DNA from: a virus
Taxonomy: Duplodnaviria; Heunggongvirae; Uroviricota; Caudoviricetes
DNA length: 8,652 nt
IMG/VR virus record: IMGVR_UViG_2648501437_000024
Span: 1-8,652 of that record
Strand: one strand, 5' to 3'
Shown: positions 4,561 to 4,773 of the stretch, in pieces
Layout of the letters: each line of letters starts with the position of its first letter
Position numbering within the stretch: position 1 is the stretch's first letter
Program-made: the position numbers and the translations under genes
The notes under the pieces: generated by a model
Told to the model about the DNA's origin: nothing
Databases searched by the model: none
What the model saw: only the letters and a program-made list of their open reading frames with translations

Positions 4561-4773
4561 AATTGTTGTGGTGCCGGGTGCTTCCCGGTGTCCTTTGGCT
4601 GGTTATCCACCGTGGACGGAGCCAATAGTCATCACAAAGGATCAATATAACCATTTCCCCGCGTGCGCTTAGCCGCATTCACCACAACGAAAAGAGCACT
4701 GTATGACGTTTGCACGGACTTACGCTTCAAACAGGGCAGTCTCGGCGGTTCTCAATGCTCTTTCCTGTTGTGT

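Follow-up and report, generated by a model that had tools for sequence, protein, structure and literature searches.

A cassette for a pseudoknotted small RNA of the STnc100/PasD family fills an unannotated gap in the tRNA operon of a phage-plasmid

The subject of this report is a gap in the tRNA operon on the minus strand of a stretch of viral DNA of 8,652 nucleotides (nt) (IMG/VR record IMGVR_UViG_2648501437_000024, positions 1 to 8,652; hereafter the window). As a first-pass annotation of this DNA had observed, and as the ARAGORN coordinates bear out, tRNA-Asn and tRNA-Thr stand only 2 nt apart, whereas 213 nt (4561-4773) separate tRNA-Thr from tRNA-Ser. We report that this 213-nt gap holds an unannotated cassette, which encodes a pseudoknotted, folded small RNA belonging to the STnc100/PasD family of prophage RNAs; the core of this RNA is homologous to that of STnc100, itself a relative of PasD. 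As an RNA element, the cassette is conserved, specific to one strand and under structural constraint, and its RNA, with its STnc100-type core, is probably cut from the transcript of the tRNA operon and then stable and trans-acting.

The cassette comprises 205 nt of the minus strand, and its two parts are a 77-nt hairpin and a 124-nt core. They are given here from 5' to 3' together with the linker before them and the trailer after them; P1 to P5 denote helices of the core (the phages of similar name are always called phages), and R1 and R2 are models dealt with below.

4766-4773, minus strand: single-stranded linker ACACAACA between the CCA of tRNA-Thr and the hairpin (sequence and locus comparison).
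4689-4765, minus strand: 5' hairpin domain of 77 nt (minimum-free-energy fold; inverted repeat I8; 24 distinct hairpins before cores in relatives).
4565-4688, minus strand: STnc100-type core RNA of 124 nt, delimited by the two strands of P1 (RF02076, R1, R2).
4680-4688, minus strand: P1 5' strand GUUGUGGUG of the closing helix of 9 base pairs (bp), pairing with 4565-4573.
4660-4677, minus strand: P2 hairpin, U-GCG / CGC-G, with the 10-nt loop GCUAAGCGCA (alignment).
4647-4653, minus strand: P3 5' strand UGGUUAU of the pseudoknot, pairing with 4600-4606.
4635-4641, minus strand: P4 5' strand UCCUUUG of the pseudoknot, pairing with 4591-4597.
4600-4606, minus strand: P3 3' strand AUAACCA, inside the P4 loop (constrained search and alignment).
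4591-4597, minus strand: P4 3' strand CAAAGGA (constrained search and alignment).
4574-4588, minus strand: P5 hairpin CCGGG-AAGCA-CCCGG, abutting the P1 3' strand (alignment).
4565-4573, minus strand: P1 3' strand CACCACAAC (fold and alignment).
4561-4564, minus strand: trailer AAUU, 4 nt from the core to the 5' end of tRNA-Ser (sequence; compare Citrobacter braakii, where 6 nt separate a core from tRNA-Met).

The spacer gave no match to Rfam at gathering thresholds, and neither ARAGORN nor the Rfam scan found a tRNA in it, not even with RF00005 at E ≤ 10. The Rfam scan by E-value gave instead the family STnc100 (RF02076), whose 206-position model matched the core with 44.8 bits (E = 2.7e-8). 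What truly matches is the middle, structured part of the model (positions ~31-147), and the copies of the core in phages P1, P7 and D6 likewise match positions 31-147 only, with 33-43 bits. Cores with a conserved 3' hairpin were gathered from IMG/VR and reduced to 36 non-redundant sequences. Model R2, which consists of 28 stand-alone lambdoid-type cores only and includes no phage-plasmid sequence, matched positions 4565-4688 of the minus strand over its full length (56.5 bits, E = 4.6e-11), and model R1 matched the window core with 77.5 bits. This end-to-end match of R2 identifies the core as a true homologue of that of STnc100. Like STnc100, moreover, the window core resides in the DNA of temperate phages of Enterobacterales. 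The 3' end of STnc100, a Rho-independent terminator at model positions ~170-206, is absent here, and tRNA-Ser starts 4 nt after helix P1. The Rfam models of tRNA, transfer-messenger RNA (tmRNA) and C4 as well as ARAGORN found no match in the spacer (nor C4, RF01695, in 4250-5150 at E ≤ 10), and related units in other phages are likewise not called as tRNA. Among the types of such units, only the STnc100-type core is recognised by Rfam.

The minus strand of the spacer folds with z = -4.25, none of 200 shuffles being as good, compared with z = -1.35 for the plus strand. In an unfitted MAFFT alignment of 35 non-redundant cores (A1), standard pairs fill 83.1% of the cells, and sliding the 3' partners by 1-3 columns lowers this share to 37-46%; the covariation score amounts to 0.297 (0.06-0.12 in the slid controls), and the observed pairing and covariation values were attained in none of 500 shuffles. 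Five helices persist in these 35 relatives, and two of the five make up a pseudoknot. P1 is 84% paired, with five pairs changed on both sides in A1; P2, in a register that suits both subtypes, is 99.3% paired and shows two CG<->GC swaps; and P5 is 100% paired in the 35 sequences. The P5 stem covaries in more distant members (CCUGG/CCAGG, GGGGG/CCCCC and GGUGG/CCACC) with the loop AGGCA kept, and across relatives the loop reads A(G/A)GCA. An initial register for P2 (A1 columns 14-30 to 18-27) was dropped, as it fits the lambdoid subtype only (88.6% paired), while the register shifted by one fits both.

Changes on both sides are seen in A1 at all 12 pairs of P3 and P4 (six each). The two helices constitute an H-type pseudoknot, because the P3 3' strand sits inside the P4 loop, and this pseudoknot is absent from Rfam's nested STnc100 consensus. 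When the search for P3 and P4 was held to fixed positions relative to P2 and P5, with dinucleotide shuffles as the control, it recovered a mean of 11.1 bp versus 3.3 bp in the shuffles, and at most 5 of 100 shuffles matched the real sequence in 27 of the 35 cores (1 of 100 for the window type); with loose positional windows the contrast to shuffles is weak. The nested minimum-free-energy structure, which has P1, P5 and the 5' hairpin right but an interior that is not conserved pairing, was replaced by the comparative P3/P4 pseudoknot. The compensatory changes argue for selection on the fold of the core. Of what the first-pass annotation had offered as explanations, it is the unannotated stable RNA that has gained substance, in the form of a conserved structured RNA that is homologous to the STnc100 core and carries compensatory changes in all variable helices.

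The other explanation, a degenerate or duplicated tRNA remnant, does not hold as it was put: the spacer contains neither a match to a tRNA model or to ARAGORN, nor a free CCA, nor a canonical T-loop (a regex search agreed with the earlier observation on the last point), and instead of decaying, its sequence is conserved under structural constraint across very different phages. The minus-sense hairpin followed by ACCA, which had been likened to a tRNA 3' end, does exist as CACCGGGAAGCACCCGGCACCA (plus-strand 4569-4590), although not at the very end of the spacer, as CAACAAUU comes after it. The hairpin is P5, and the ACCA belongs to the paired 3' strand of the 9-bp helix GUUGUGGUG/CACCACAAC and forms no free tail. 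The outline of the core is nevertheless tRNA-like, with an acceptor-like closing helix, a D-arm-like first hairpin that follows a 2-nt AA linker (positions 10-11), and a last hairpin that abuts the 3' strand of the closing helix; given this topology, a distant tRNA origin of the core is possible. In the 5' hairpin, the sequence of the lower stem GGAAAGAGCAUUG/CAGUGCUCUUUUC is conserved across units (GGUAAGAGCAUU...AAUGCUCUUUCC) and the apical part is variable. An (A/G)CACAACAGG motif, as in the linker, likewise follows tRNA-Thr or a preceding core in related arrays.

Comparison with homologous tRNA clusters, which the first-pass annotation had proposed as a check, reveals that the cassette is present, absent, swapped or multiplied among relatives. 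In phage Cyrano, whose flanks are 97.6% identical, the site is empty and consists of tRNA-Thr, ACACAAUU (8 nt) and tRNA-Ser; the filled site of the window and the empty site of Cyrano differ by exactly 205 nt, bounded by a 23-nt imperfect direct repeat, the copies of which are 78% identical and spaced 205 nt apart:

4555-4577, no strand assigned: right copy of the 23-nt imperfect direct repeat (repeat search).
4760-4782, no strand assigned: left copy of the same repeat (repeat search).

An empty site like that of Cyrano occurs in at least one plasmid (H140). The near-repeat of two plus-strand strings that had been noticed at the outset is thereby accounted for. Both strings are real, TGTTGTGGTGCCGG lying at 4564-4577 (given earlier as 4565-4578) and TGTTGTGTTGGTGCCGG at 4766-4782 (given as 4768-4784), so that only their coordinates were off by 1-2 nt; because Cyrano has the empty site, the repeat most plausibly marks the junction of a 205-nt insertion/deletion polymorphism and is not a duplicated tRNA 3' end. 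In plasmid pIso00225_02, on the other hand, the hairpin (96% identity over the first 100 nt) and both P1 strands are kept around a core interior that is entirely different; this plasmid also has an additional tRNA-Tyr.

We surveyed the Thr-Ser distances in 51 viral contigs and other loci, all with the same tRNA-Thr 3' end, and found distances of 8, 213, 217, 224, 232, 241, 294, 402, 446-465, 563, 617 or 705 nt. These spacers hold zero to four tandem hairpin-plus-core units of one design; in each unit, a hairpin whose lower stem is conserved (GGUAAGAGCAUU.../...AAUGCUCUUUCC) and whose top varies precedes a core with GUUGUGRUG/CAYCACAAC as its closing helix. The end of each unit resembles tRNA-Thr plus trailer (…CACCA(A)CACAAC), which explains the repeat and provides a substrate for unequal recombination. 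R1 links other unit types weakly to the STnc100-type core, among them T2c and T2d (20-25 bits, E from 5e-4 to 7e-3). Further copies are found in D6-like ban operons, in the leader and between tRNA-Ile and ban (R1 28-31 bits, E from ~2e-5 to 1e-4), so that the operon alternates tRNAs with such RNAs along its length. In the D6 locus they lie at 700-799 and 3495-3609, with equivalents in loci L010, L024, L038 and L054 (L-numbers are labels of comparison loci); the leader member upstream of tRNA-Asn has the P5 sequence GGGGG-AGGCA-CCCCC, and the member between tRNA-Ile and ban has GGUGG-AGGCA-CCACC. In the unit types that are not of the STnc100 type (loci L002-L059), for example the core ATTGTGGTGAATGCACAGGCTGATGTGC...GTCGGAGTTCAGCACCGAC of phage P1, the loop of the first hairpin is complementary to that of the last one (GCUGA:UCAGC, with the compensatory variant ACUGA:UCAGU). 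This suggests a kissing contact of the P2 and P5 loops resembling that of D-loop and T-loop, which is statistically weak, as 3-47 of 200 shuffles were as good. The tRNA genes are also cassette-like: tRNA-Tyr stands between Asn and Thr in many plasmids (e.g. L002 1755-1841), and tRNA-Arg(UCU) takes the place of Asn in others (loci L010, L012 and L054 are among the cassette-like examples).

Among 5,426 complete E. coli genomes, 7 have the 213-nt spacer in full, and the core is present at 85-87% identity in ~420 further ones, on P1-like plasmids; it is never annotated, and ~440 of the 5,426 genomes thus carry it without annotation. After tRNA-Thr, P1-, P7-, D6-like and SSU5-like phage-plasmids have variable tandem arrays of related hairpin-plus-core units. 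The core of classical phage P1 belongs to the ban operon, which is under C1 control, and maps between trnT and tciA (70068-70201). The open reading frames (ORFs) plp and upl of phage P1 (NC_005856 locus 1629-2198) run antisense to three hairpin-plus-core units between trnT and tciA (~1659-2358), and plp overlaps trnT by 30 nt. Phages P7 and D6 have different sets of units at this position and no such ORFs. We caution that ORFs annotated antisense to the arrays may not be genes; plp and upl may be annotation artefacts over RNA genes.

More widely, a 21-mer of P5 is found in >120 species-level genomes, almost all of them Enterobacterales, in which the cores are often arrayed, with 3-7 divergent copies per kb. 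A Pantoea sp. App145 plasmid (loci L215 949-1989 and L205 3115-4486) and Citrobacter braakii (L253 3741-5460) have six to seven divergent STnc100-type cores within ~1 kb. In three of the gaps inspected in the Pantoea arrays, TATAAT stands 6-10 nt upstream of the core 5' end, and the RNA unit is therefore taken to extend from P1 to P1; there are no obvious terminators between these cores. In C. braakii, where the cores are interleaved with tRNA-Met(CAU) and tRNA-Thr, a core is followed after 6 nt by tRNA-Met, which mirrors the arrangement in the window.

How the cassette would be expressed is suggested by its position. Within 4561-4773 there is no promoter-like or terminator-like site, and a crude scan of 4200-6600 found no sigma-70 consensus. 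Since the cassette has no such sites of its own and lies between tRNAs that are otherwise 2-8 nt apart, co-transcription with the tRNAs is favoured. The cassette would thus be transcribed within an Asn-Thr-[cassette]-Ser polycistron and released by the tRNA-maturation machinery of the host. Cleavage by RNase P at the 5' end of tRNA-Ser would generate the 3' end of the cassette RNA, 4 nt past P1, and the 5' side would be set where RNase E, RNase III or exonucleases attack the ACACAACA linker and the hairpin. The compact, folded core would then persist as a stable RNA and act in trans on host or phage RNAs or on RNA-binding proteins, by analogy with its relatives, as a regulatory, sponge-type or decoy RNA, in which case the variable internal segments would confer the specificity of each cassette.

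The relatives of the core are known to be expressed. Eleven STnc100 copies are transcribed in EDL933, and a Northern blot has verified one of them (PMC5331693). Hfq stabilises PasD, for which RIL-seq has found many partners (PMC8550237), and a common ancestor of PasD and STnc100 has been proposed (Zhu, Shabalina and Storz; bioRxiv 10.64898/2026.05.13.724894). In addition, the chimera of PasD2 with the 3' untranslated region of yjbJ is the most abundant one on CsrA (bioRxiv 10.64898/2026.08.12.744399). Our search of the literature on phage P1 ban-operon RNAs and on phage-plasmid tRNA and non-coding RNA found nothing relevant.

Several points weigh against a stable, trans-acting RNA of this family. 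The Rfam STnc100 score falls 2.2 bits short of the gathering cut-off of 47, which we ascribe to the missing terminator module, as the alignment forces the terminator of the model onto tRNA-Ser. Eight of the 35 cores have no pseudoknot under the search constraints and adopt a nested alternative instead. Within the subtype to which the window and phage P1 belong, P3 and P4 are invariant and provide no covariation, so that the pseudoknot there depends on positional equivalence with other subtypes; moreover, an alternative helix, GCGGGG/CUCCGU, and the nested minimum-free-energy fold compete with it in the window. The family has an intrinsic terminator, on whose U-tail the binding of Hfq normally depends; this terminator is missing here, and Hfq dependence therefore cannot be assumed for the cassette RNA. 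GGA motifs, a possible lead to CsrA, are not enriched in the core (4 observed vs 2.7 expected). Cyrano lives without the cassette, which is thus dispensable for the tRNA operon. Finally, we infer the transcription, cleavage sites and stability of the cassette RNA, and any concrete trans target is putative.

Among the other explanations, the one that survives best, though we consider it improbable, is that the core is a tRNA mimic that titrates a protein or an enzyme, i.e. a decoy or sponge with no base-pairing role; CsrA, Hfq, a tRNA-processing or tRNA-modifying enzyme, or a tRNA-targeting defence nuclease of the host would be candidates for titration. This would explain why the core travels with variable sets of phage tRNA genes, the neighbouring tRNA cassettes being variable (Asn or Arg, with or without Tyr, and then Thr and Ser), and such variation would be expected of counter-defence tRNA sets. 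The tRNA-like outline, with P1 stacked on P5 and the first hairpin D-arm-like, is in keeping with it, as is P5 itself, in which the loop A(G/A)GCA is near-invariant and GGA always lies at the stem-loop junction while the stem covaries, a pattern typical of a recognition site; PasD2, furthermore, is the most abundant RNA partner on CsrA. However, a protein partner of the core RNA is hypothetical, the count of GGA is not above expectation, the core goes entirely unrecognised by tRNA models, and its highly variable interior fits an RNA that bears specificity better than a pure decoy.

We give still less credence to the idea that hairpin and core are a purely cis-acting element for processing, insulation or attenuation, tuning the maturation or level of tRNA-Ser or of downstream genes without any function as a free RNA. 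The cassette does lie within the operon and has no promoter-like or terminator-like site of its own, the homologous core of phages P1, P7 and D6 is located ~30 nt upstream of tciA/terB, and the lambdoid core precedes an intrinsic terminator in the manner of an expression platform. Yet the features that the core precedes are unrelated to one another (tRNA-Ser, tRNA-Met, tciA, a terminator or another core), tandem arrays reach 6-7 copies, some with their own TATAAT just upstream, stand-alone relatives accumulate as discrete small RNAs, and the tRNA-Ser of Cyrano does without such an element.

That the spacer is non-functional debris, a decayed or partly duplicated tRNA gene or a recombination scar kept by chance, is very unlikely. 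Its location in a tRNA array, the dispensability of the cassette in Cyrano, the T-arm-like GGGUUCGAAUCCC in some related hairpins, and the resemblance of the core 3' end (CCGGCACCACAACA) to the 3' end of tRNA-Thr with its trailer (CCGGCACCAACACAACA) might be read in this way, but a tRNA signal is lacking, conservation of the core extends over SSU5-like phage-plasmids, P1-like ones and lambdoid prophages (>120 species genomes, almost all Enterobacterales), and many independent compensatory changes are the signature of selection on the fold. A small protein from the spacer can be dismissed almost entirely: ORFs do exist on both strands (4526-4678, minus strand, 50 aa; 4514-4672, plus strand, 52 aa), and antisense ORFs are annotated over the equivalent DNA of phage P1 (plp, upl) and Cyrano (CYRAN_40), but the minus-strand ORF starts at an AUG within the conserved GAAUGCGG, where lambdoid relatives carry GAAUCCCCC and no AUG, and extends 35 nt into tRNA-Ser, the plus-strand ORF begins within the tRNA-Ser gene, and the variation tracks helix pairing and unit-sized indels, not codons.

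The replicon that carries the cassette is closely related to known phage-plasmids. The 8.6-kb window is 99.4% identical to the E. coli IncFIB phage-plasmid NZ_CP082122 and is related to the phages Cyrano and CMS-2020a, which are SSU5-like phage-plasmids; annotated products of the SSU5-like relatives include a primase, an ATP-dependent ligase, AplA, GrxA, a tyrosine recombinase and a CobT-like protein. The spacer lies on the minus strand within ~1.4 kb that have no annotated coding sequence, a stretch closed by the terminator at 4298-4317. The remaining features of the operon are the following:

4852-4926, minus strand: tRNA-Asn(GUU), first tRNA of the operon (ARAGORN; Rfam tRNA model, 75.5 bits).
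4774-4849, minus strand: tRNA-Thr(UGU), with CCA encoded and the cassette directly after it (ARAGORN; Rfam tRNA model, 76.5 bits).
4474-4560, minus strand: tRNA-Ser(UGA) (ARAGORN; best Rfam match the tRNA-Sec model, 42.3 bits).
4298-4317, minus strand: bidirectional intrinsic terminator that ends the tRNA and non-coding RNA operon, common to the convergent ORF 3385-4293 (terminator scan).

The tRNA-Ser(UGA) gene at 4474-4560 is atypical: RF00005 does not report it at its gathering threshold, and the 42.3 bits of the tRNA-Sec model are below that model's cut-off. In the alignment to the tRNA-Sec model, its acceptor stem has 8 bp and its T stem 4 bp, and the D6 record remarks that the amino acid of the corresponding tRNA-Ser was not called by tRNAscan-SE. 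It may be a serine tRNA of tRNA-Sec shape, of the 'allo-tRNA' kind. Directly 3' of it, at 4394-4471 (minus strand), there is a 20-bp hairpin, 95% complementary, with a 38-nt loop, and a small hairpin with a U-run (GUUGCUAACAUCCUAGCAAC ACUUUUUU) is located at ~4335-4362 (minus strand), before the main terminator at 4298-4317. In P7- and D6-like phages, the position corresponding to 4394-4471 and ~4335-4362 is occupied by another hairpin-plus-STnc100-type unit.

The leader upstream of tRNA-Asn, ~780 nt without an annotated coding sequence (wider leader 4927-5660), is strongly structured (z = -4.32 and -4.45) and holds a second related module at 5135-5308 (minus strand). This module consists of a hairpin at 5308-5198 with a 14-bp stem (GUUGAGGCCAUUAC...GUAGUGGCCUCAAC) and continues with a 63-nt mini-core at 5197-5135 (minus strand; GUUGUGAAGACAGG...CCUGUUUUCACAAC), whose terminus CACAACAAAUG repeats that of the main core. 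Neither R1 nor R2 matched the mini-core, because it has no P2 and P5. In addition, 16 nt of the leader (5090-5105) are 88% complementary to the anticodon-arm region of tRNA-Thr (4812-4827; DNA inverted repeat I2), which could be due to chance, an inverted fragment of a tRNA gene or a pairing site.

Few annotated small-RNA families are as abundant in the genomes of enterobacteria as STnc100 (PMC9029176), and the STnc100/PasD family itself is already known. What is new is its form embedded in a tRNA operon, with a companion hairpin and no promoter-like or terminator-like site, together with the covariation-supported pseudoknot, the presence/absence and core-swap polymorphism, and the tandem modular arrays in P1-like and SSU5-like phage-plasmids. 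The functional unit would be the compact pseudoknotted core and not the classical small RNA of promoter, seed and terminator; such a core can be delivered through tRNA operons, a form in which it escapes annotation. The core is one of a wider set of modular units that come, go and replace one another at tRNA-Thr in phage-plasmids of medical relevance (the P1-like and SSU5-like ones are frequent carriers of resistance genes), and the natural pair of filled and empty sites in the window plasmid and Cyrano provides ready isogenic material for tests of function.

A bolder and more tentative reading, for which we see perhaps some chance but which we would not expect to prove right, is that the spacer is one cassette of recombinationally shuffled arrays of tRNA-shaped scaffold RNAs, an undescribed system of which STnc100 and PasD would be stand-alone lambdoid offshoots. 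These scaffolds would combine a fixed frame of P1, P2 and P5 with a hypervariable interior of pseudoknots or kissing loops and a hairpin of conserved stem in front, and would be sited between the tRNA genes of early (ban-type) operons in P1-, P7-, D6-like and SSU5-like phage-plasmids, including the units under plp and upl of phage P1, and in the arrays of 6-7 copies in other Enterobacterales. If so, the variable interiors would be exchangeable guides, sponges or decoys directed against regulators or tRNA-directed defences of the host.

Compared with known systems, the cassette RNA, as a homologue of STnc100, is closest to that small RNA of lambdoid prophages in Salmonella and E. coli. The two have in common a homologous core of 117-124 nt with the same P1, P2, P4 and P5, the near-invariant motifs UGGUGAAU and CACCGGGA(G/A)GCACCCGGCACC, and residence in temperate-phage DNA of Enterobacterales. 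Unlike STnc100, the window RNA has no 5' leader, promoter-like site or intrinsic terminator, a tRNA standing in the place of the last; its P2 loop is of the GCUAAGCGCA subtype instead of CCUGUGCGGA, and its core is preceded by a conserved long hairpin and embedded in a phage-plasmid tRNA polycistron. PasD1 and PasD2, small RNAs of prophages in enteropathogenic E. coli, are expressed and are the best functional lead for the STnc100/PasD family, the link to the window RNA being indirect, via STnc100; they are, however, stand-alone genes in lambdoid late regions and have terminators.

In arrangement, the cassette resembles the stable RNAs of the tRNA cluster of phage T4 (species 1 and 2, rnaC/rnaD), which are not tRNAs but are co-transcribed with tRNAs and released by host tRNA processing. 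The likeness is one of arrangement and not of sequence comparison, T4 is a virulent phage, and we know of no sequence relation between its stable RNAs and the window RNA. The C4 antisense RNA of phages P1 and P7 and the CI RNA of phage P4 are small cloverleaf-like RNAs with variable specificity loops that are cut from longer transcripts by RNase P. C4 (RF01695) comes from the same phage group, P1/P7, as relatives of the window RNA, but differs from it in size, fold and locus (immI, not the ban/tRNA operon). Spacer RNAs of E. coli tRNA operons, such as the 3'ETS-leuZ sponge, are freed from tRNA precursor spacers by RNase E and RNase P; they are short, weakly structured by-products of host operons, whereas the window cassette is mobile and highly structured and has homologues that are independent genes. 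Finally, the core shares with tRNA and the tRNA-like domain of tmRNA the closing helix, the short linker, the first hairpin and a last hairpin that abuts the 3' strand, and with tmRNA also the possession of a pseudoknot, but it differs from both in having no T-loop consensus (GTTCRANNC), no anticodon arm and no free NCCA end.

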